Positions 1 to 8,796 of a stretch of DNA of 8,796 nucleotides are shown here, in pieces; the stretch's first letter is position 1, and the number at the start of each line of letters is the position of its first letter. The stretch lies in IMG/VR virus record IMGVR_UViG_2693429555_000008. One strand, given 5' to 3'. Below the pieces are notes generated by a model. It saw nothing but the letters and a program-made list of their open reading frames with translations. It was not told the DNA's origin and did not search any database. The stretch is from a virus (lineage: Duplodnaviria; Heunggongvirae; Uroviricota; Caudoviricetes). Position numbers and translations under genes: made by a program.

Positions 1-302
1 GCGTATGGTCAACCTGACAACCCGGTGTCCTCAACGGGGGAAGGAATAACCCCGCCATACTTACCGCCGCGCCATTTCGCGGATTGCCACAACCGGAAGC
101 GCACGGTCGACGAAAATTTAACGACAGGCTATCTATGAACCAGCTACCTCGCCGTGCGCTTTCGCGTTATGGTCTGACTTTTCAGGGAAATATCCTTTCA
201 GTAAACTGTCAATGCCGGATGCTCACCCGTGTCCGGCGCACGCATTCCACCTCACCCGTGGAGAACTCCTTAATTACTAACCTTAGCTTTGTTGATTAGC
301 TA

Positions 303-521
303 CTAACGCGGGTATGTAATCATTCTGGCAATGCTTAATGCCGCTGCTTTTTCCAGATTGGTGATATCCTGCTCCAGAGCGGACAGATTTTCAGCCTGCT
401 TAGCTCTGGCTTCATTGGCCCATTTCAGATCCTGCGCTGCATTAATTTTCTGGTGCATCCACTCATAAAGTTCATCATCGGTATAGTCTGGCGCGATGAT
501 GACGGGTTCTCGTTTCTGCAT
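303..521 (-). CDS. ydfC: Small prophage early-left protein, 72 aa (YdfC-like)
   Basis: ORF MQKREPVIIAPDYTDDELYEWMHQ...ARMITYPR; ATG at 521..519 with GAGGA Shine-Dalgarno about 5 nt upstream (532..528); last of three co-directional small genes downstream of the repressor. Size and order match ydfA(51)-ydfB(42)-ydfC(72) of the E. coli Qin dicB operon as I recall it; symbol assigned by synteny and size, not by search. Confidence 0.55.
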   Translation of the reverse strand: MQKREPVIIAPDYTDDELYEWMHQKINAAQDLKWANEARAKQAENLSALEQDITNLEKAAALSIARMITYPR

Positions 522-550
522 ACTGATTCCTCGCGGTGCTGTTTCGCTTA

Positions 551-679
551 TCAGCCGTTAGATTTTGCCGAACTGGAAAGCGCCTGTTTAAATTCGTTGA
601 AGCTGAGAGCTTCTTCGCCTTCGGCAAGACCTTCGAAGTATTCTTCGTAAGCCTTTTCCATGATTGTGTCGAAATCCAT
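551..679 (-). CDS. ydfB: Small prophage protein, 42 aa (YdfB/YdaG-like), acidic
   Basis: ORF MDFDTIMEKAYEEYFEGLAEGEEALSFNEFKQALSSSAKSNG, too short to appear in the supplied ORF track. ATG at 679..677 lies one nt after the TGA (683..681) of the upstream gene, with AGGTGA Shine-Dalgarno inside that gene, suggesting translational coupling. Confidence 0.5.
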   Translation of the reverse strand: MDFDTIMEKAYEEYFEGLAEGEEALSFNEFKQALSSSAKSNG

Positions 680-680
680 A

Positions 681-836
681 TCACTCACCTGAGTTTCTTT
701 CCAGCCAGCGACGGGCACCATTTTCGGTTTTAAACGTTTTGCTTTTGGTATACGTCATCGCGGTGAACGTACCGTCCTGGTTGGGAAACACGCCGTACAC
801 CAGAGATTCGTTGTTGCCAAGATCGATAGTATCCAT
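681..836 (-). CDS. ydfA: Small prophage protein, 51 aa (DUF1391-like, YdfA/YdaF-like)
   Basis: Internal Met of track ORF 681..917; MDTIDLGNNESLVYGVFPNQDGTFTAMTYTKSKTFKTENGARRWLERNSGE. GAGG Shine-Dalgarno 5-8 nt upstream of ATG 836..834; the upstream in-frame extension has no ribosome-binding site. First gene of the leftward early operon. Confidence 0.6.
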   Translation of the reverse strand: MDTIDLGNNESLVYGVFPNQDGTFTAMTYTKSKTFKTENGARRWLERNSGE

Positions 837-1020
837 GTTGACCTCATTTCCCCTTAACGCCGGGGTAGCGGAACAAAAACCTGCTGCATAGTTATTAAAG
901 TTGAACCCTGCCGTCATGTTCTTACGCCTCGGGCTGGCTACTTAACCCCTGACCACTGCCTGGTAACTCGAAGTATTGCCCTGCATTCTGTGGGGTGGGG
1001 TGGGTTGGTATGAAAGGAAG

Positions 1021-1060
1021 GATACCCATGGGTATCCAAAAAGTAAATACCCATGGGTAA
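1021..1060. promoter_or_regulatory. OL-like operator pair: two copies of the 12-bp palindrome TACCCATGGGTA (1023..1034 and 1048..1059), centres 25 bp apart
   Basis: Perfect palindromes read directly; the first extends to the 16-bp GATACCCATGGGTATC. They sit between the repressor 3' end and the leftward small-gene operon and overlap a candidate leftward promoter (-35 TTTACT / -10 TATCCT on the minus strand). A T6 run at 1061..1066 follows the second copy on the plus strand, with a U-rich stretch after it on the minus strand, so a terminator role for the repressor transcript is also possible. Confidence 0.45.
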
Positions 1061-1101
1061 TTTTTTGATGTGTCTTAACTGGTGACTGGTTGTTTGGTGA
1101 G

Positions 1102-1521
1102 TTATGATGCGTTTTGTGCTTTCTTTTTACGGATTTCTTCGTAGATCATATTGTAATACTGTTTTTTCTCTTCAAGAGTTTTTAATAAGTTATCCGCTTC
1201 ACTTTCTGGCAGTTCGTCTAAGAGATCTAAAAAAATACGTTGTCGTGGCGTTAGAACCCTTGTTTCATAATTGGAGGCTGTGTTCGTTGATGATGAAACG
1301 ATACCATCCATCCATCCCCGGGGTAACCCAAAGGACTCTTCTATAATCTCCACCATATCATCAGCGATCCGTTTTTTTCCTTTTTTCCCCTCTGGGTACA
1401 ACATTCTTGATACATAAGAAGGCTCGCGACCGATCTTTCTGGCCACGTTAACCGCTTTACCATCGCATTTCTCATCACGAATTTTGATGAGTTGTTGTCG
1501 TCTAAATTCATATTTGTCCAT
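1102..1521 (-). CDS. Prophage repressor, XRE-type HTH, DicA/RacR-like, no peptidase domain (139 aa from first ATG)
   Basis: Track ORF 1102..1563 begins at a TTG; the first ATG is at 1521..1519 (MDKYEFRRQQLIKIRDEKCDGKAVNVARKIGREPSYVSRMLY...). HTH segment GKAVNVARKIGREPSYVSRM. C-terminal LTPRQRIFLDLLDELPESEADNLL resembles the DicA C-terminus as I recall it. Divergent from a Cro-like gene. No Shine-Dalgarno before the ATG and a TATTAT -10 (1533..1528) 6 nt upstream suggest a leaderless transcript. Confidence 0.75.
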   Translation of the reverse strand: MDKYEFRRQQLIKIRDEKCDGKAVNVARKIGREPSYVSRMLYPEGKKGKKRIADDMVEIIEESFGLPRGWMDGIVSSSTNTASNYETRVLTPRQRIFLDLLDELPESEADNLLKTLEEKKQYYNMIYEEIRKKKAQNAS

Positions 1522-1556
1522 AGGTAAATAATAGATGCGATTACCGCAAGGTAAAC

Positions 1557-1596
1557 AACCCAAGGGTATTGACTTTTGTTTACCTGTGGGTATTCT
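1557..1596 (+). promoter_or_regulatory. OR-like region: rightward promoter (-35 TTGACT 1569..1574, -10 TATTCT 1591..1596) overlapped by two operator half-palindromes (AACCCAAGGGTA 1557..1568; TACCTGTGGGTA 1581..1592)
   Basis: Hexamers with a 16-bp spacer, AAGGAG Shine-Dalgarno at 1611..1616 and ATG at 1622. Both sites match the TACCCATGGGTA palindrome at 10 of 12 positions and are 24 bp apart centre to centre, mirroring the OL-like pair. Confidence 0.45.
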
Positions 1597-1621
1597 TTGC
1601 TGTGTTTACTAAGGAGTAGCT

Positions 1622-1903
1622 ATGGAAGAATTAAGAATATTTCTCAATTCTCTTTCGTCAGATGAACAGCGTATGTTTGCATGTGAGTGTGGTACTAGCA
1701 TCGGTTATCTAAGAAAGGCATTGAGTAAAGGTCAAATGTTAGGGGCATCGTTATGTGTCCTTATTGAGCGAGCCAGTAATGGTGAAGTTACACGTCAGCA
1801 ACTAAGGCCTTTTGATTGGATGAATATTTGGCCCGAGCTGGAAGATACCAAAACGTTAACACAACCACTTACTAGGAGCTTGATTCATGAAAATCAAGCA
1901 TGA
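1622..1903 (+). CDS. ydaS: Cro-like HTH regulator, YdaS family (93 aa)
   Basis: First rightward gene, divergent from the repressor, with a strong AAGGAG Shine-Dalgarno. The C-terminal segment LIERASNGEVTRQQLRPFDW matches the E-R-A-x-x-G-x-V-x-R-x-x-L-R-P-x-x-W signature I associate with YdaS/Cro-like phage regulators. Its 3' end overlaps the next gene by 17 nt. Confidence 0.65.
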   Translation: MEELRIFLNSLSSDEQRMFACECGTSIGYLRKALSKGQMLGASLCVLIERASNGEVTRQQLRPFDWMNIWPELEDTKTLTQPLTRSLIHENQA

Positions 1904-2312
1904 ACACATCCGCATGGCGATGAATGCCTGGGCGCGTCCTGATGGCGAAAAAGTTCCAGCAGCTGGAATAACCCAGGCTTATTTTGAGTTGGGTATGACG
2001 TTTCCTGAACTGTATGACGACAGCCATCCGGAAGCCCTGGCTCGCAATACCCAGAAAATTTTCCGCTGGGTAGAGAAAGACACCCCTGATGCAGTTGAAA
2101 AAATTCAGGCGTTGTTACCAGCGATCGAAAAGGCAATGCCACCTTTGCTGGTGGCCAGAATGCGCAGCCACAGTTCAGCTTATTTTCGGGAGTTGGTGGA
2201 GACGCGGGAGCGACTGGTGAGAGACGCTGATGATTTTGTCGCAGTGGCAATCGCCGGTTTCAATCAGATGAACCGTGGTGGCCCGGCAGGAAATGCTGTG
2301 GCAGTACATTGA
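1887..2312 (+). CDS. ydaT: YdaT-like protein (CII-position regulator/toxin family), 141 aa
   Basis: ORF MKIKHEHIRMAMNAWARPDGEK...; AGGAG Shine-Dalgarno at 1873..1877. It sits immediately after the Cro-like gene, as in the racR-ydaS-ydaT module of the Rac prophage; the N-terminus and length (~140 aa) fit my recollection of YdaT. Confidence 0.65.
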   Translation: MKIKHEHIRMAMNAWARPDGEKVPAAGITQAYFELGMTFPELYDDSHPEALARNTQKIFRWVEKDTPDAVEKIQALLPAIEKAMPPLLVARMRSHSSAYFRELVETRERLVRDADDFVAVAIAGFNQMNRGGPAGNAVAVH

Positions 2313-2383
2313 CTGACAATAGCCATATCGAATCGCTTCCGGCAATTCGTGAGTAAAAAGATTCGGTATCAGAAGAGGTGAGT

Positions 2384-2542
2384 ATGGCTAACGCCTGGCT
2401 CAGATTATGGCATGACATGCCAAATGACCCTAAGTGGCGAACAATTGCCAGGGTGTCAGGGCAGCCAATTGCAACAGTGATGGCAGTGTATATCCACGCT
2501 CCTGGTGAGCGCGTCACGAAATGTCACGCGAGGTCACATTGA
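2384..2542 (+). CDS. Replication initiator, N-terminal fragment (52 aa ORF ending inside iteron array 1)
   Basis: ATG 2384 with GAGGTG Shine-Dalgarno; MANAWLRLWHDMPNDPKWRTIARVSGQPIATVMAVYIHAPGERVTKCHARSH, stop TGA 2540..2542. The N-terminus resembles prophage replication proteins, and the gene sits where O would be in a lambda-like early-right operon. Confidence 0.5.
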   Translation: MANAWLRLWHDMPNDPKWRTIARVSGQPIATVMAVYIHAPGERVTKCHARSH

Positions 2543-3455
2543 TGTCACGACAGAAGATTTGGCAAGTGCGCTCGACGTGACAGAAGAGGTAATTGATTCA
2601 ATTTTGCAGACGATGCAGGGGCGGGTACTTGATGGTGATTTAATCACTGGATGGGAAAAACGCCAGGTGCTTAAAGAGGACAACGGCAATATTTCGCAAA
2701 CCGCAAAATCTCCGGCAGAGCGCAAGAGGGCGCAGCGTGAGAGGGAAAGAAAGCGGGAACAAAATGGCGATTGTCACGGCGCGTCACGAAATGTCACGCA
2801 CATGTCACGACGAGTCACGACAGATAAAGATACAGATAGAGATACAGATAAAGAAGATCAAAACACTATGGTCCATGGCGTAAAAAACGCCACGAACCAT
2901 GTAGGGGATGTTCAGACCGTCACTCCTGGCCAGCCCGCAGGCACGACACCGGAAGCCGATTCAGCGTATGCGCTGAAAGCCGATTCGGGCGCTGTGCAGC
3001 AGGCGATGACCGCTGGGCCGGAGCAATCACACCAACTGCAGCAGCCTGAAGCCGATTCCGCCATTCAGCGGGAAGCCGATCGGGTAGTCCCGGAAAACAC
3101 CGGGCAGCCTGTGGGACGAGTGGATTATCCGGATGTGTTCGAACAGGTCTGGCGGGAATACCCGTTACGAGCCGGGGCAAACCCGAAGAAATCCGCTTTC
3201 AGTGCCTGGAAGGCCAGATTACGCGAGGGGGTGCCACCAGAGGCCATGCTGGATGGTGTAAGGCGTTACACAAGATACCTGGCTGCTACCGGGAAAACGG
3301 GAACGGAATTTGTTCAGCGAGCGACGACGTTTTTTGGACCGGACCGGAATTTTGAAAACCCCTGGTTGCTCCCGGTAAGCGGCACGAACAACCAGCGTTG
3401 TGTTAATCATATTTCTGAACCGGACACCGAAATTCCGCCGGGATTCAGAGGGTAA
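2505..3455 (+). CDS. Replication initiator, main ORF in the +1 frame (316 codons; GTG at 2505, no Shine-Dalgarno of its own)
   Basis: Long ORF with no ATG or ribosome-binding site; its frame opens at 2481 and overlaps the N-terminal ORF over 2481..2542, so both are most simply one gene interrupted by a +1 frame change. It contains both iteron arrays and a low-complexity basic/acidic linker (KRAQRERERKREQ; TDKDTDRDTDKED). Confidence 0.6.
   Translation: MSASRNVTRGHIDVTTEDLASALDVTEEVIDSILQTMQGRVLDGDLITGWEKRQVLKEDNGNISQTAKSPAERKRAQRERERKREQNGDCHGASRNVTHMSRRVTTDKDTDRDTDKEDQNTMVHGVKNATNHVGDVQTVTPGQPAGTTPEADSAYALKADSGAVQQAMTAGPEQSHQLQQPEADSAIQREADRVVPENTGQPVGRVDYPDVFEQVWREYPLRAGANPKKSAFSAWKARLREGVPPEAMLDGVRRYTRYLAATGKTGTEFVQRATTFFGPDRNFENPWLLPVSGTNNQRCVNHISEPDTEIPPGFRG
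2509..2549. repeat. Iteron array 1: four GTCAC(G/A) motifs starting at 2513, 2523, 2533 and 2544 (10-11 bp phasing)
   Basis: Read directly. The 21-bp block GCGCGTCACGAAATGTCACGC (2509..2529) recurs at 2779..2799. Confidence 0.6.
2771..2855. repeat. Iteron array 2 (putative ori core): five GTCACG motifs at 2773, 2783, 2793, 2804 and 2814, followed by three 12-bp repeats ACAGATA(A/G)AGA(T/A) at 2820..2855
   Basis: Read directly; helical-turn phasing of short direct repeats next to an A-rich repeat block, inside the initiator gene, as for the lambda origin within O. Confidence 0.6.
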
Positions 3456-3492
3456 CAGATTTCAGGTCATGGGGTAATTTTCAGGAGGGCTT

Positions 3493-3768
3493 GTGGCAAA
3501 AGTTTTTACTCCCGAACTGCGGGAAGAAGTGAAGGCGCGCATTGTGGAACTGGTACGCAGAGATGGGCGAAAAACGCGTAAACAACTGGAAAATGAAACC
3601 GGGGCGACGAGACACCTGATAGAAGTTCTGGTGAAAGAGCTGGTAGTTAGTGGCGCAGTATATGGTTCAGGACATGGAATATTTCCTTCGGAGCAGGCTC
3701 GTAAGGACTGGGGAAAAGCCCGCAAAAAAAATGTCGAGAGCGGCAGTGAAAAAGAAGAGCGACCCTGA
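3493..3768 (+). CDS. Hypothetical small basic protein with winged-helix-like segment (91 aa)
   Basis: GTG 3493 preceded by a strong AGGAGG Shine-Dalgarno (3483..3488), 37 nt after the initiator stop. RKTRKQLENETGATRHLIEVLVKELVVSG looks HTH-like. An A8 run (3724..3731) lies near the 3' end where an overlapping +1 ORF continues to 3901. Confidence 0.5.
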   Translation: MAKVFTPELREEVKARIVELVRRDGRKTRKQLENETGATRHLIEVLVKELVVSGAVYGSGHGIFPSEQARKDWGKARKKNVESGSEKEERP

Positions 3769-4045
3769 CCTGATTTATTCATTGCTAGATGGCGAAATAC
3801 GCCGTTACAACAGACGACAGAATATAATTTGTCGCGAGTGTCGTCAGAGCGAAGTTATGCAGCGCATACTGGAATTTTATCAGGGAAATGTTCGGTATTA
3901 ATTGAAGTGACGAAATTAAAGAGCATTAGTTCAGATATTAATTGACACTTCGATGGCACAGGCCCAGACCTAGTCTGGTTGTCAGCTTTGAGCTAGGTGA
4001 ACGTTGGTATCGTTAGTTTGTATTAATCAACGGAGAATAGGCCAA

Positions 4046-4076
4046 ATGACTTTTCTTTGCCTCTTTTAATTATAAT
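4046..4076 (+). promoter_or_regulatory. Candidate promoter for the 932-aa gene (-10 TATAAT 4071..4076; weak -35 ATGACT 4046..4051, 19-bp spacer)
   Basis: Good -10 hexamer in a ~240-bp AT-rich intergenic region; the -35 is poor, so placement is tentative. AAGGA Shine-Dalgarno at 4132..4136 before ATG 4145. Confidence 0.25.
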
Positions 4077-4144
4077 TCAAGTTCAATTGATTACATTGAA
4101 GTACTAATGTGAGTCCGTCAAACAAATAGCTCAAGGAATAGGTC

Positions 4145-6943
4145 ATGTGGGGAAGTGAAAACAAACAAAATCTGGACGTACTGGATCCTGTGCAGTTGGT
4201 GCGTATCGAAGCGGTACACCGGGGGTTCCTTTACCAGCATCTTTACGCTGTAGGCTGCTTACTTTTGGCGCAGAGGGCAGCTATGGACTCAGTAACTGTC
4301 GAGCTTGATGAGGATATTGAGCTGAAATCCAAACAGGAACGTCTCTACATTCAGGTTAAAACCCGTTCAAAACCTATTATGCCCAACGATGTGTCGGGGG
4401 CTCTGGAGCGATTTGTAAAGCTCAGAAATGAGCATACTTCGGCAAACCGCGAAGGGGTGGCTTCTTTTGTGATTATTGTAAACCAGGCGCCTGGACCGCT
4501 GCTTCAGAAGATGATTGACGATAAAAAGCTTCCTTCTGATGTTCTTATTGTCTGGCCCCAGTCGACAGCTGGACGTCACCCGGCACTTCCGCCCGCATGG
4601 AGTACTCTGGCTGATGCGGCCACATGGTGTATCGCAGAAGCAGAAAAGCTGAAATTTTCACTATTGTCCCCAGAATCCTTGATTTGGAAGTTAGCAGGAT
4701 TGGTTCAGCTTGCCGCCACCGGAGGCGATACCAATGGACAACATACGTTTTTCACGGAAGAACTTACTGAACTATTTGAACAGTTGATCGTTCAGCTACA
4801 GGACTTTCCTGCACCACCAGCACTGTACCGCCCACAGAACGAAGAACCTTCTCTCACATCTGGTGAGCGGATCCGTATCCTTTGTGGACTCTCAGGTGCA
4901 GGCAAGACAGCTTGGGCCGCACAGGCCGCATTACACTCCACTGCACTTTGTGCTTATTACGACACCGGTGATCTTCCCGGTCCAGCTCTGGCCAGTACGC
5001 TGGTGCGCGAGATGGCTGCTAGATTTACAGCCCGTGACCAAGACGGTTTGCGCAGGATTTTGCTCCCCGGTGCCAGTGGTTTTGAGGCTCTTAGGAGTTT
5101 TGATACCTACCTGAAAGAGCAGGGTACCACCTTGGTGCTGGTTCTGGATAACGCCCATCGTGTACCTGCGGAAAATCTACTGGATGTTCTGAATGCAACT
5201 ACACATATTCGTTTTGTGCTGTTGTGCCAGCCTCACGAAAACGTTCGCGAACTGGAGGTCATGACGGGGCTACAGCGCGAGGGCCTGCAGGGATGGAATC
5301 TCGATACGGTAGCTGTCGTTGTAAACGATATCGGAGGATTTGCCACCGCTATGGGATACGAGCAGCTACGGGCTTACACTGGTGGTCTTCCCCTGTATGT
5401 AGAGAGCGCCGCAAAAATCGCCGTTTCTGATTATGAGCGTAATGTCGATGCTCTGTGTGCTGAACTCCAGCAACAAACCCATACTGCGGAAACCGCCCAA
5501 GAAATTATTCTGTCACGTGTATTTCAGGGATTTGAATCACTACTTCAGAGCGCGCTGGCATTGTTCAGTCTCTCTGACGTAGGGCTGAGTCGCGAAGAGA
5601 TTTCTACGCTCCTAATCAATTCGCTGAACATTTCACCAAGCAGTGCTGCTTCTTTAATTAGGAAAATGCGCGCTACTGGCACTATTGAAATTTATGGAAA
5701 CCAGACCCTGAAGGTACATGATGCTGTCAGGGGGCTAGGACTGCAACATCTGGAACTGATGGATCAGGGTATATCGAACAAAGCGCTACTAGCGCTGAAA
5801 GACCTTTTAGTTGAAAGTCTTCATAATACCCGCAATACAAAACGGTTATCGTTGTTGACTCAACTTTATATTAAGCTCAATGATGTCACGACGTTGATCG
5901 AACTCTCAGGCCAAGAAATGTTTTATGAGATGGGCGTGACGGTCGACATTCTTGCAAGCTTGGAGCGTGCTGCAACATCGGACTTATTGGGACCTGTTCA
6001 TAAATTCTGGGCATTGGATGGCCTTGTTTTCGTTGAGCTTAAAGACGGAATATCCGACCACATTGCTCAGAGGTTAAACATCATGGGAGCTTTACTTGCG
6101 GAGCACAAGTTCGGCTATCAAGAAGAGATGGCCTATGCAATGAAACGAATGTTATTTTCGGCAGAAAGCAATGATGCACGAGAAGTTCAAAAGCTGGCAC
6201 AGGAAGTCCGCCCCCAACTCCCAGATGAAGAACATAAACGCATCTTTGACTACAACCATGCCATTGCACTCTGGAGATTAAAAAAACTCAAGGATGCTGA
6301 AACATTAAGCTGTAATGTTATACAAGGGTACTATTCTTTATTTGGTATCACACCTGCTGATGTCATAGGAAAAAACGCCGACGCATTATGGAAAACTATT
6401 AATCATTCCGAAAATATGCAGGAACACTTTAAACATATGGCTGATGCTCTGGAGTTGCTGGCCAGAATTCGTGATGCGCAGGGAAAACTGTCACCATTAC
6501 TGCGTATTCATTCGATGAAGTTCTACAATCTGGCCATGGCCCCGGAATCCATGGTCAGGGTGGGCCAAGATCTGGCGGATGAGTTTGTTGCCATAAAGGA
6601 TTACGACGGTGCCAAGGAAGTCATGGAGCAACATGTCCTGCCGGTTGTCAATGAGGCAGGTCTAGTACATCGACTGATTCAGGTTCGAAGCCAATACGCA
6701 GTCATATTAGCACTATCGGGTCAGCATAAAGCAGCTGATGTCGAAATGCAGCGCCTTGCTCCCTATATCGAAGGCCTCACAGGTGTACAGCGTCAAGAAA
6801 TCCAAAATCAATCAAATTACATCGTACAGCTTGCCCATAAAGCAGCAAAGACTAAATTAACTGAAGTTTTTGGTGCGGTCGGCCGGAATGAACAATGCCC
6901 CTGTGGCTCGGGAATAAAGTACAAAAAATGTCACGGTGCCTGA
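4145..6943 (+). CDS. STAND/NB-ARC-like P-loop NTPase, 932 aa, with nuclease-like N-terminal domain, helical C-terminal region and terminal SEC-C zinc motif; candidate anti-phage defence protein
   Basis: Uninterrupted 2.8-kb ORF with its own Shine-Dalgarno. Walker A GLSGAGKT (4886..4909); Walker B-like LVLVLDNAH (5132..5158); HIRFVLLCQPHE resembling an NB-ARC RNBS-B/TTR motif; GGLPLYV resembling the GLPL motif (5381..5398); C-terminal CPCGSGIKYKKCHG (6896..6937) matching the SEC-C metal-binding motif. N-terminal GFLYQHLY and D/E-rich strand followed by QVK are compatible with a PD-(D/E)xK fold. GC content looks lower than in the flanking phage genes. Confidence 0.9.
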   Translation: MWGSENKQNLDVLDPVQLVRIEAVHRGFLYQHLYAVGCLLLAQRAAMDSVTVELDEDIELKSKQERLYIQVKTRSKPIMPNDVSGALERFVKLRNEHTSANREGVASFVIIVNQAPGPLLQKMIDDKKLPSDVLIVWPQSTAGRHPALPPAWSTLADAATWCIAEAEKLKFSLLSPESLIWKLAGLVQLAATGGDTNGQHTFFTEELTELFEQLIVQLQDFPAPPALYRPQNEEPSLTSGERIRILCGLSGAGKTAWAAQAALHSTALCAYYDTGDLPGPALASTLVREMAARFTARDQDGLRRILLPGASGFEALRSFDTYLKEQGTTLVLVLDNAHRVPAENLLDVLNATTHIRFVLLCQPHENVRELEVMTGLQREGLQGWNLDTVAVVVNDIGGFATAMGYEQLRAYTGGLPLYVESAAKIAVSDYERNVDALCAELQQQTHTAETAQEIILSRVFQGFESLLQSALALFSLSDVGLSREEISTLLINSLNISPSSAASLIRKMRATGTIEIYGNQTLKVHDAVRGLGLQHLELMDQGISNKALLALKDLLVESLHNTRNTKRLSLLTQLYIKLNDVTTLIELSGQEMFYEMGVTVDILASLERAATSDLLGPVHKFWALDGLVFVELKDGISDHIAQRLNIMGALLAEHKFGYQEEMAYAMKRMLFSAESNDAREVQKLAQEVRPQLPDEEHKRIFDYNHAIALWRLKKLKDAETLSCNVIQGYYSLFGITPADVIGKNADALWKTINHSENMQEHFKHMADALELLARIRDAQGKLSPLLRIHSMKFYNLAMAPESMVRVGQDLADEFVAIKDYDGAKEVMEQHVLPVVNEAGLVHRLIQVRSQYAVILALSGQHKAADVEMQRLAPYIEGLTGVQRQEIQNQSNYIVQLAHKAAKTKLTEVFGAVGRNEQCPCGSGIKYKKCHGA

Positions 6944-7016
6944 GTCTTTGTACGACCATGCGGGCCTTATTGTCTTGCTATTGCTCTTATGGTTCGCCTT
7001 TCTGATTGATTTCATA

Positions 7017-7045
7017 TTGGCGAGGTGACGGGAGTTAAGTAGAAT
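7017..7045 (+). promoter_or_regulatory. Candidate hok/mok mRNA promoter (-35 TTGGCG 7017..7022, -10 TAGAAT 7040..7045)
   Basis: 17-bp spacer. The predicted start near 7052 would give a ~110-nt leader and a ~420-nt transcript ending at the terminator 7445..7471, the size expected for hok-family mRNAs. Confidence 0.35.
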
Positions 7046-7098
7046 GGCTGCGGGTGCTTGAGGCTATCTGTCTCAGGCATGAACACCAAAGGCAGATA

Positions 7099-7172
7099 GA
7101 GAAAAGCCCCAGTTAACATTACGCGTCCTGCAAGACGCTTAACATTAATCTGAGGCTCAATCTATGAACGGC
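7099..7172 (-). ncRNA. sok: Candidate Sok-like antisense RNA
   Basis: Minus-strand promoter -35 TTGCCT (rc of 7202..7207) and -10 TAACCT (rc of 7179..7184), 17-bp spacer, start near 7172. The transcript would be complementary to the mok Shine-Dalgarno and start codon (7152..7166), contain hairpin GCGTC-CTGCAA-GACGC (7123..7138) and end in a U-rich tract (rc of 7099..7105). Boundaries are approximate. Confidence 0.35.
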
Positions 7173-7376
7173 AAATCTAGGTTAGCCTCTTACGTGCCGA
7201 AAGGCAAGGAGAAGCAGGCTATGAAGCAGCAAAAGGCGATGTTAATCGTCCTGATCGTCATCTGTTTAACCGTCATAGTGACGGCACTGGTAACGAGGAA
7301 AGACCTCTGCGAGGTACGAATCCGAACCGGCCAGACGGAGGTCGCTGTCTTCACAGCTTACGAACCTGAGGAGTAA
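7164..7376 (+). CDS. mok: Mok-like reading frame (70 aa), an in-frame N-terminal extension of hok
   Basis: ATG 7164 with GAGG Shine-Dalgarno 8 nt upstream; in frame with hok and sharing its stop, as I recall for chromosomal mokC/hokC. Its start region is the predicted Sok target. Confidence 0.5.
   Translation: MNGKSRLASYVPKGKEKQAMKQQKAMLIVLIVICLTVIVTALVTRKDLCEVRIRTGQTEVAVFTAYEPEE
7221..7376 (+). CDS. hok: Hok/Gef-family type I toxin (51 aa membrane peptide), HokD/RelF-like
   Basis: Translation MKQQKAMLIVLIVICLTVIVTALVTRKDLCEVRIRTGQTEVAVFTAYEPEE is nearly identical to the E. coli HokD/RelF sequence as I recall it; hydrophobic transmembrane helix followed by the conserved RKDLCEV...GQTEVAVF core. 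Confidence 0.9.
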   Translation: MKQQKAMLIVLIVICLTVIVTALVTRKDLCEVRIRTGQTEVAVFTAYEPEE

Positions 7377-7444
7377 GAGATCAGGCGGGGGAGAAATCCC
7401 TCGCCACCTCTGATGTGTCAGGCATCCTCAATGCACCCGCACTT

Positions 7445-7471
7445 AACCCGCTTCGGCGGGTTTTGTTTTTT
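7445..7471 (+). terminator. Intrinsic terminator of the hok transcript
   Basis: Stem AACCCGC (7445..7451), loop TTCG, stem GCGGGTT (7456..7462), then TTTTGTTTTTT to 7471. Confidence 0.7.
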
Positions 7472-7543
7472 CCTGGCATTCTGGTTTACAATTCGCACGC
7501 CAGCCTGAACAACTGGCACCTGCTGCGCCAGCAGAGACAACCG

Positions 7544-7822
7544 ATGGCGCACGATACCAAATTACACAATTCTAATGATTCTGCTGTCTTTGCCAGCAGG
7601 TGCGGACGGCGTTTTCACGCATTCACATCAGACTGGTTCCAGCATCCTCCATGCACTGAAGAGCAGGCTGAATGGATAATTCAGTGTTACCGCAGGCGTG
7701 GATACGAGGTTAAGAAAGCTCTTAGTCTCGACTATCGTCACTGGATAATCTCAGTCAGACTCCCTTACTCCGAACGCCCACCGCGTCCGTCCCGCACATT
7801 CCAGCAACGCATCTGGAGGTAA
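7544..7822 (+). CDS. Hypothetical 92-aa protein, paralog copy 1 (Cys/His/Arg/Trp-rich; Rem-like position after hok)
   Basis: Track ORF 7415..7822 contains the hok terminator, so the start is placed at ATG 7544 (MAHDTKLHNSND...WFQHPPCTEEQAEWIIQCYRRRGYEV...). Near-identical to the 8145..8423 product over the C-terminal ~65 residues. In the Qin prophage hokD is followed by rem then ydfU; assignment is by synteny only. Confidence 0.55.
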   Translation: MAHDTKLHNSNDSAVFASRCGRRFHAFTSDWFQHPPCTEEQAEWIIQCYRRRGYEVKKALSLDYRHWIISVRLPYSERPPRPSRTFQQRIWR

Positions 7823-8039
7823 CGTGCGGGTATTACTTCGACCTGTTCTGGTACCGGAACTCGGGCTGGTGATCGTTAAGCCGGGCCGTGAATCCATGCC
7901 GGTATTCCACAATACCCGGGTACTGGTGGAGCCGGAACCGAAAAGCATGCGTAATCTGCCGTCCGGGGTCGTTCCTGCCGTTCGCCAGCCGCTGGTGGAA
8001 GACAAAACATTGCTGCCGTTTTTCAGTAACGCACGGGTA
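7616..8039. repeat. Tandem direct repeat, unit A (424 bp, ~95% identical to unit B)
   Basis: Base-by-base comparison with 8217..8640, offset exactly 601 bp, with a handful of substitutions. Confidence 0.85.
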
Positions 8040-8078: not shown

Positions 8079-8144
8079 ACTCATCTACAATCTTGCGCGG
8101 GGCTGAACTCCCGCTGAGTAACACCGTGCCACCGGAGAAAACCG

Positions 8145-8423
8145 ATGGCACGCAACGTAAAATATTACAATTCTGATAATTCGCCCGTTCTTGCCTGCAC
8201 GCACGAGCGGTATTCTCACGCATTCAAGTCTGAATGGTTCCAGCACCCTCCATGCACTGAAGAGCAGGCGGAATGGATAATTCAGTGTTACCGCAGGCGC
8301 GGATACGAGGTTAAGAAAGCTCTTAGTCTCGACTACCGTCACTGGATAATCTCAGTCAGATTGCCTAACTCCGAACGCCCACCGCGTCCGTCCCGTACAT
8401 TCCAGCAACGCATCTGGAGGTAA
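8145..8423 (+). CDS. Hypothetical 92-aa protein, paralog copy 2
   Basis: ATG 8145 with GGAGA Shine-Dalgarno (8134..8138); MARNVKYYNSDNSPVLACTHERYSHAFKSEWFQHPPCTEEQ.... The N-terminal ~25 residues differ from copy 1; the rest is near-identical. Confidence 0.6.
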   Translation: MARNVKYYNSDNSPVLACTHERYSHAFKSEWFQHPPCTEEQAEWIIQCYRRRGYEVKKALSLDYRHWIISVRLPNSERPPRPSRTFQQRIWR

Positions 8424-8640
8424 CGTGCGGGTATTACTTCGACCTGTTCTGGTACCGGAACTCGGGATGGTGGTCGTTAAGCCGGGCCGTGAATCCATGC
8501 CGGTATTCCACAATACCCGGGTACTGGTGGAGCCGGAACCGAAAAGCATGCGTAATCTGCCGTCCGGGGTCGTTCCTGCCGTTCGCCAGCCGCTGGTGGA
8601 AGACAAAACATTGCTGCCGTTTTTCAGTAACGCACGGGTA
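8217..8640. repeat. Tandem direct repeat, unit B
   Basis: See unit A. Confidence 0.85.
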
Positions 8641-8796
8641 ATTCGTGCTGCTGGTGGTGCTGGTGCATTGTCTGACTGGCTGTTGTGCCATATTAAATCC
8701 TGCCAGTGGCCACACGGCGATTATCATCACAGCGAAACCGTCATTCACCGTTATGGTACCGGCGCAATGGTGTTGTGCTGGCACTGCGACAACCAG
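8425..8796 (+). CDS. Cys/His-rich phage protein, 5' part (DUF968/YdfU-like?), continues beyond the window
   Basis: GTG 8425 translationally coupled to the upstream gene (GGAGG 8416..8420); open to the window end (124 codons). ...IRAAGGAGALSDWLLCHIKSCQWPHGDYHHSETVIHRYGTGAMVLCWHCDNQ contains C/H clusters suggesting a metal-binding domain. Confidence 0.6.
   Translation, partial: MRVLLRPVLVPELGMVVVKPGRESMPVFHNTRVLVEPEPKSMRNLPSGVVPAVRQPLVEDKTLLPFFSNARVIRAAGGAGALSDWLLCHIKSCQWPHGDYHHSETVIHRYGTGAMVLCWHCDNQ

Follow-up and report, generated by a model that had tools for sequence, protein, structure and literature searches.

This study concerns an 8,796-nucleotide stretch of viral DNA, referred to below as the window, from the IMG/VR record IMGVR_UViG_2693429555_000008 (Caudoviricetes), and in particular the spacer between a DUF977 gene and an open reading frame (ORF) of 932 amino acids, hereafter the 932-aa gene. 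The window comes from a Qin/Rac-type lambdoid prophage of Escherichia coli, of which it spans the immunity, replication and nin-like region; positions 3400-7400 and 1-8038 of the window are 100% and 99.8% identical, respectively, to NZ_CP148579.1. The 932-aa gene lies between DUF977 and the sok/hokD locus, a position at which related prophages hold different cargo. An initial annotation had taken the whole spacer for the insertion boundary of a horizontally acquired cassette with its own promoter, on the basis of base composition, a TTGACA and a TATAAT hexamer and a small hairpin.

Five prophages with other cargo were used for comparison, namely Tritos (L001), vB_EcoS-813R8 (L002) and three chromosomal prophages of E. 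coli (L004-L006). Homology of the window to these five extends up to position 3993 (3893 in L002) and begins again at 6967 (7033 in L002), with 90-97% identity in both flanks, and the alignment to related prophages that had been suggested as a check thus located the endpoints. The interval from about 4049 to 6966 was found only together with the 932-aa gene. Among 5,426 complete E. coli genomes, 16 carry this gene, and in each of them it occupies the DUF977-hokD interval. No close homologue was found in phage isolate genomes, and of 50,697 phage records only two metagenomic ones contain the gene (34-39% identity); its homologues reside on chromosomes, integrase islands and plasmids of many Proteobacteria. 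Its proposed status as horizontally acquired accessory cargo was borne out by these rare occurrences and by the near-identical prophages with other cargo, and the gene did not prove to be a conserved core component of related phages. As for the boundary, one does exist, only inside the spacer at about 3964-3996 and not over the whole of it; therefore the TTGACA and the hairpin fall on the backbone side and the TATAAT alone falls on the cargo side. The interpretation of the initial annotation is thus partly supported: its insertion conclusion is right, on comparative evidence and not on the motifs and composition from which it had been drawn.

The left 92 bp of the spacer (3902-3993) belong to the phage backbone, with 84-87% identity to the other-cargo prophages over 3902-3963 and 77% over 3964-3993. 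They hold a degenerate version of a conserved, roughly 85-nt non-coding element whose consensus is GATTAAAGnGCATTAGTTCAGATGnnAATTGACA...TGGCACAGGGTAGAGCTAGCGTGGTTGTCCGCTTTGTGCCAAnAGCGGACAT and which was seen directly 3' of DUF977 in 94 IMG/VR contigs. The AATTGACA block of this element, which contains the TTGACA, is kept in 19 of 20 aligned copies, and no acceptable -10 follows it in any of them. In its intact form in L001 the element contains two overlapping inverted repeats, 90-95% paired in relatives, with a folding free energy of -18.4 kcal/mol (z = -2.6). The repeats read GGCACAGG.../...CTTTGTGCC and TGTCCGCTTT/AAAGCGGACA, and intact copies are found, for example, at L001:4424-4500, L125:2349-2440 and L148:10625-10716. 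Both stems are lost in the copy of the window, where the hairpin at 3964-3978 is a lineage-specific substitute.

The remaining 151 bp (3994-4144) form the leader of the 932-aa gene, and two integrase islands carry the same leader (140-180 bp) together with the gene. In the Logan contig L010, a block homologous to window positions 3964-6967 by BLAST and 91.8% identical lies directly after a P4-type integrase, beside a DUF4365 gene and a type I restriction-modification system; in the IMG/VR contig L097, the block corresponds to 4001-6967 by BLAST, is 93% identical and follows a different P4-type integrase. Over 3994-4144 the leaders of L010 and L097 are 84-85% identical to that of the window. 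With the 3' part of the phage element in L001- and L005-type prophages, these island leaders give a significant local alignment of 73 nt (score 20-23, compared with 8.7 +/- 1.3 in the null and 0 of 1000 shuffles), and this alignment is not shared by the leaders of distant homologues. In the latter, what is kept of the leader is confined to about 10-40 nt at the ribosome-binding site (Serratia at 81%, Enterobacter and Rahnella at 73% amino acid identity), where the block CAA(G/A)TA(A/G)C..A(A/G)GGAA is retained even in Serratia, Enterobacter and Rahnella. The left junction is thus a graded stretch common to the phage backbone and the cassette lineage, which fits a homology-assisted crossover. 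No support was found for small ORFs of 21-40 amino acids in the spacer.

At the right end the window keeps only 23 bp of the cassette past the stop codon, compared with at least about 70 bp shared by L010, L097 and the Serratia locus L007. Past 6966 the window switches to the 3' end of a small hydrophobic ORF, which is whole in the other-cargo prophages, and the right junction has the appearance of an illegitimate join in which both partners were cut short. The cut ORF (VLVLKCALAIAAVMAIYCLAVVLMDRLSD) is small and unannotated and lies just upstream of hok/sok in prophages with different cargo; it is full-length, for example, at about 6470-6560 of L001. The right flank was identified from its homology to the other-cargo prophages, an Rfam sok match of 110 bits, a Pfam HOK_GEF match and the first predicted plus-strand terminator at 7445-7462. 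The features of the locus are listed in Table 1.

Table 1. Coordinates of the genes, junction segments and candidate signals in the 8,796-nt window.
Feature	Position	Strand	Remarks
ydfC, ydfB and DUF1391 genes	leftmost part of window	minus	
DicA-like repressor	1102-1563	minus	
YdaS-like Cro	1622-1903		
YdaT-like gene	1887-2312		
Replisome organiser	ends 3455		
DUF977 gene	3493-3901	+	frameshifted; last conserved backbone gene left of the cargo slot
Spacer	3902-4144		bounded by the DUF977 stop codon (ending at 3901) and the start codon of the 932-aa gene (ATG, 4145)
Backbone half of spacer	3902-3993	+	degenerate copy of the ~85-nt non-coding element (window ~3915-3996); holds TTGACA and hairpin
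Transition zone	3964-4048	+	homology to island copies starts here (3964-4001); part common to L001-/L005-type backbones
Cassette-side half of spacer	3994-4144	+	AT-rich leader belonging to the 932-aa gene; beyond ~4048 not matched in prophages with other cargo
Best sigma-70-like candidate	4046-4076	+	ATGACT (4046-4051), 19-nt spacer, TATAAT (4071-4076); predicted start near 4083
Inverted repeat TTCAAT-N7-ATTGAA	4082-4100	+	just 3' of the -10
Shine-Dalgarno AAGGA	4133-4137	+	7 nt before the ATG; read from the sequence
932-aa cargo gene	4145-6943	+	Cap4-like PD-(D/E)xK nuclease, STAND NTPase, TPR-like helical repeats, C-terminal SEC-C zinc motif
Residual 3' tail of cassette	6944-6966	+	junction 6966/6967 with 1-nt microhomology
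Right backbone flank	6967-7462	+	hydrophobic-ORF remnant 6967-7009, sok 7052-7226, mok/hok ORF 7164-7376, terminator 7445-7462
sok/hokD locus	7052-7376		
rem-like and DUF968 genes	right end of window		

The observations from which the initial annotation had started were re-examined against these boundaries. The AT-richness of the spacer was confirmed (37.0% GC, compared with 48.9% for the whole window), as just 2.2% of 243-bp windows are equally AT-rich. The 932-aa gene had been said to be lower in GC than its surroundings, and this is not the case: its GC content is 48.0%, that of all sequence to its left 48.4% and that of DUF977 47.2%, and its GC content at third codon positions (GC3) is 0.45 with 0.31-0.68 in its neighbours. 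The leader, at 33.8% GC, is the sole part of the cassette that deviates in composition. Base composition would have missed the acquisition because the GC of the gene matches that of the phage, and the proposed rule of giving up the idea if GC turned out uniform, as it did, would wrongly have discarded a correct one.

The three motifs are exactly where they had been placed (TTGACA 3942-3947, TATAAT 4071-4076, CCAGAC-CTA-GTCTGG 3964-3978), and it is their reading that failed. The two hexamers had been offered as a promoter of the gene; they are 123 bp apart and therefore do not make a single sigma-70 promoter, for which a distance of 16-18 bp (15-19 at the limits) was used as the criterion. The best -10 partner of the TTGACA is CAGACC (score 6.4), and no plus-strand promoter was found in the spacer by a consensus scan. 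In a shuffle comparison, exact TTGACA occurs 3 times with 5.7 expected and TATAAT 4 times with 2.9 expected. The hairpin folds no better than shuffles (-7.7 to -10.7 kcal/mol, z = -0.7, 44 of 200 shuffles equally stable) and is one of 15 six-nucleotide inverted repeats in 351 bp. It is followed by TTGTCAGC, with no U-tract, and no terminator-like site was predicted in 3902-4144. It is missing from the backbone relatives, degraded in L010 and weakened to a G.U pair in the EC13 lineage (four complete genome records with the same cassette, two of them of identical length and coordinates). The hairpin was rejected as a meaningful feature on account of its shuffle-level stability and its absence from relatives; the eye-catching motifs, TTGACA and hairpin, are not the functional parts.

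Promoters were also scanned with a simple position-weight matrix based on hexamer frequencies of E. coli promoter compilations. The best candidate in the leader, ATGACT-19-TATAAT, scored 10.2 (consensus 17.6) and was the fourth best site in the window, after a hok promoter-like site, a site at 292-320 (TTGATT-17-TGTAAT) and a pR-like site. The hok promoter-like site (7017-7045, plus strand, TTGGCG-17-TAGAAT) is just upstream of hok/sok, and the pR-like site (1569-1596, plus strand, TTGACT-16-TATTCT) is just upstream of the cro-like gene. Both islands, L010 and L097, have GTGACT-19-TATATT at the position of the candidate and at the same distance to the ATG. A promoter of its own within the leader seems to us somewhat the more probable reading for the 932-aa gene, because this leader serves the gene in non-phage contexts. 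No plus-strand terminator was predicted between 1596 and 7445, and read-through from the early operon upon induction is therefore likely. The inverted repeat TTCAAT-N7-ATTGAA is identical in the window, AR_0089, EC13, L010 and L097, and by our own estimate about one such six-nucleotide repeat is expected by chance; it could be an operator, a 5' stem or a chance occurrence. In Providencia rettgeri (L008:5767-5973), a 68-amino-acid gene with an XRE-type helix-turn-helix lies 28 bp upstream of the homologous 932-aa gene, whose neighbours are AbiGi, AAA_23, MC2 and CTD6 genes; this arrangement hints at a dedicated regulator for some members of the family.

Taken as a whole, the explanation that we consider probable is that the 243-bp spacer is of composite make-up, a junction rather than one regulatory region, and that an acquired cassette with a weak promoter of its own follows it. 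The left 92 bp would represent the decayed end of the conserved element and would mark the left edge of a variable slot that runs from the replication module to hok/sok, and the right 151 bp would be the leader belonging to a cassette of one gene (about 3964/3994 to 6966). The left join may have been formed through a stretch of 30-80 nt in which the phage element and the cassette leader are homologous (3964 to about 4048). In the lysogen, the weak sigma-70 promoter in the leader would transcribe the gene from a start near 4083, giving a leader of about 62 nt with AAGGA, and read-through from pR would be added upon induction. The junction itself is ordinary prophage mosaicism, and the position of cargo exchange in a common E. 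coli prophage family is now located with a precision of about 30 nt at the left end and 1 nt at the right end.

Several results weigh against this explanation. GC and GC3 were rejected as a sign of foreign origin, the composition of the gene being that of its neighbours. The promoter candidate has a suboptimal 19-nt spacer, 25% of AT-rich spacer shuffles score as high, and in the EC13 lineage a 12-bp deletion (AATAGGCCAAAT) at window 4036-4047 alters its -35. Leader identity to the islands (84-90%) is about that of four-fold degenerate sites of the gene (82-85%), which therefore indicates recent ancestry and not demonstrated constraint, and leader conservation was for this reason rejected as evidence of selection. 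Finally, the left boundary is graded rather than crisp (3964 to about 4048), and transfer from island to phage and from phage to island both fit.

The chance-level score, the -35 altered in the EC13 lineage and the roughly neutral evolution of the leader would also suit a gene with no promoter of its own, which would simply be the next gene of the pR early operon, expressed on induction only, with the spacer as ordinary recombination-derived intergenic DNA; the absence of a predicted plus-strand terminator from the pR-like site to the gene points the same way. We nevertheless regard this as rather unlikely, as the same leader stands before the gene in two integrase islands with no phage early operon upstream, the TATAAT/TATATT -10 keeps a constant distance from the ATG, and prophage cargo of the defence type is generally expressed in the lysogen (Cumby 2012, cited in PMC9122126). 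That the spacer serves as an H-NS nucleation site silencing the acquired gene, in line with the silencing offered as one option in the initial annotation, is improbable. The low GC of 3994-4144 with its A/T tracts and the recurrence of AT-rich upstream regions in the enterobacterial homologues L007, L008, L010, L011 and L025 speak for such silencing, but AT-rich upstream regions of 150 bp are normal for promoters, and the gene body, at 48% GC, resembles its surroundings, unlike typical H-NS-bound islands.

A boundary defined by structure, with the hairpin or its element acting as a functional RNA or DNA structure such as a terminator, a processing site or a recombination site, is one to which we give little credence. 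Homology of the island copy does begin exactly at the hairpin (3964), the element of the relatives has overlapping inverted repeats that are unusually stable in L001, and at least 20 cargoes diverge just after the element. Set against these points are the unremarkable fold of the window hairpin, with no U-tract and no equivalent in the backbone relatives, its degradation in L010, and the behaviour of the element stems, for which covariation did not exceed controls, the commonest variant has a broken 3' arm and no Rfam match was obtained. Finally, the match in GC and GC3 between the gene and its neighbours would be compatible with an ordinary conserved phage intergenic region in front of a core lambdoid gene; this possibility has virtually no probability left and is refuted by the finding that no close phage relative carries the gene and that 5,410 of the 5,426 E. 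coli genomes lack it.

The element was considered further for functions of its own. Stem covariation was at the level of the shuffle controls (85/500 and 301/500) and was set aside as evidence; in the commonest variant (33 of 94 contigs) the 3' arm is broken. Searching Rfam with the window and with the intact L001 element gave only spurious sub-threshold matches in the spacer. Neither the element nor the island junction could be traced to a tRNA or att remnant, and a tRNA-like reading of GGTAGAGC...TGTGCCA was dropped after ARAGORN, which reported nothing in the window or L097 and just an unrelated upstream tRNA-Leu in L010. The peptide WLSALxQKQT in L093 had suggested that the element might be a methyltransferase remnant or the tail of a small ORF; a stop codon breaks this frame in the L091 type, and the element is therefore not a conserved coding region. 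In HannyBb-type phages (L093:4096-4302; L109 type), a truncated DNA-methyltransferase ORF replaces the 5' part of the element and runs into the GTGGTTGTCTGCTTTG core, so that the core, about 32 nt long, is flanked by breakpoints at either end. It is conceivable, though we doubt it, that the core GTGGTTGTCYGCTTTG-N6-AAAGCRGACAT with its overlapping repeats is a functional junction element, either a linker or a structured site, which repeatedly channels cargo into the slot. If so, its occurrence ahead of this 932-aa cassette in integrase islands as well would be a trace of defence cargo moving between lambdoid prophages and P4-type islands.

Between DUF977 and hokD, the relatives carry a gene for an FRG-domain protein on the opposite strand, unrelated hypothetical genes, a two-gene unit, a QueH-like gene or several small ORFs, as seen in the seven annotated slot variants inspected. 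The 94 IMG/VR contigs with the same left element show 25 distinct continuations, and the hok flank is reached for 18 of these at about 0.7-7 kb. On sequence comparison, the DUF977-hokD slot is thus occupied by at least 20 unrelated cargoes in Qin/Rac-like prophages, and it combines conserved flanks with highly variable content, as expected of a hotspot. No sign of a site-specific cassette site (attC-like or att) was found, the conserved element being at the left edge only and the right junctions differing (6967 versus 7033); no recombinase gene adjoins the slot, and the window contains no tRNA or att duplication. Of six alternative cargoes searched, one matches a PADLOC candidate (PDC-S15), one has a weak HEPN/RES N-terminal match, one is QueH-like and the rest gave no match. 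The FRG-domain protein of 444 amino acids, encoded in the same slot at L004:2258-3592 (minus strand) and L001:4651-5985, is the one that matches PDC-S15 (E = 7e-99). In one genome (H41, NZ_OZ546984.1) the 932-aa gene is interrupted by ISEc52 of the IS3 family. The slot is a practical place in which to seek new anti-phage genes because of the at least 20 different cargoes found there.

The cargo can be compared with several described systems. In the E. coli K-12 Qin prophage, relBE lies upstream of hokD, so that both prophages have accessory cargo immediately upstream of hokD; in K-12 the cargo is a toxin-antitoxin pair and the replication/DUF977 module is absent. Accessory transcription units between conserved lambdoid genes are known as morons (Cumby, Davidson & Maxwell 2012, as cited in PMC9122126). 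Like these, the 932-aa gene is present or absent in near-identical prophages, lies between conserved genes, follows an AT-rich leader whose TATAAT resembles a -10, and could plausibly benefit the lysogen. The moron concept is reportedly also attributed to Juhala et al. 2000. Unlike morons, the 932-aa gene has a body whose composition is not distinct from that of the phage, its promoter is a candidate only, and no terminator of its own is predicted before 7445-7462 because the tail of the cassette is truncated. Defence hotspots of the P2 and P4 prophages and satellites have been well described, and those of other prophages mentioned, in Rousset et al. 2022 (PMC9122126) and Vassallo et al. 2022 (PMC9519451). 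The present slot resembles them in its conserved flanks around many unrelated cargoes of 0.7-7 kb, some of which are defence candidates (PDC-S15), and the same cassette also occurs beside P4-type integrases. It differs in lying in Qin/Rac-like lambdoid prophages, after the replication module and DUF977 and before hok/sok, and most of its cargoes have no known defence annotation. No description of the slot was found in a limited search of the text of PMC9122126 and PMC9519451.

Pfam analysis of the 932-aa protein identified a Cap4-type nuclease domain (residues 25-77, just above the cut-off), AAA_22 (239-364) and SEC-C (914-931). The PD-(D/E)xK-type residues D55, D57, E59, Q70 and K72 and the Walker A motif G248-T255 are invariant among 23 aligned homologues with 49-81% identity to the query. 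An N-terminal Cap4-like PD-(D/E)xK nuclease, a central STAND NTPase with Walker A and B and C-terminal TPR repeats, the hallmarks of Avs architecture, were all recognised, and in structure the NTPase comes nearest to MalT, PH0952, Apaf-1 and plant NLRs. SeAvs3 and SeAvs7 are examples of Avs proteins that begin with a Cap4-like nuclease (bioRxiv 10.64898/2026.01.04.697583). The 932-aa protein is like them in domain architecture and unlike Avs in having an extra C-terminal SEC-C zinc motif and no Avs-family sequence match. PADLOC v2 (E <= 0.01) found no Avs model and only a weak LmuA N-terminal match, which speaks against the assignment. No named family was obtained from PADLOC, NCBIfam or PDB sequence searches, the PDB match being limited to the SEC-C motif, and WP_000264572 was not found in the supplements of bioRxiv 10.64898/2026.01.04.697583 that were searched. 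The family has more than 900 matches, usually of exactly 932 amino acids, in Gamma-, Beta- and Alphaproteobacteria and also outside these classes. At 82 loci with a homologue, the GC content of the gene follows that of the host (39-67%), and homologues were found on large plasmids and next to AbiGi, restriction-modification and conflict-system genes. The protein is an anti-phage candidate because it is widespread in Proteobacteria and matches no PADLOC model; we think it fairly likely that it is an Avs-like anti-phage sensor, and it could be the first member of a new Avs-like family marked by a SEC-C zinc tail.

Two neighbouring regions of the window show changes of their own. The DUF977 gene is split by a frameshift into the overlapping ORFs 3493-3768 and 3650-3901, with an A-run near 3721-3730. 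Pfam DUF977 matches both ORFs (profile positions 1-83 and 70-133), and RefSeq labels the gene as frameshifted in the 100%-identical genome. The window has a TAA stop (3899-3901) where its relatives have TTA, their stop being 9 nt later, and the gene is intact (417 nt) in AR_0089 and EC13, two genomes with the same cassette. At the right end, the rem-like ORF and the 5' end of DUF968 are present as two diverged tandem copies (7446-8038 and 8128-8796), and the C-termini encoded by ORFs 7415-7822 and 8145-8423 are near-identical. A single copy is found in L003 and L099, and the arrangement in L100 is more complex.

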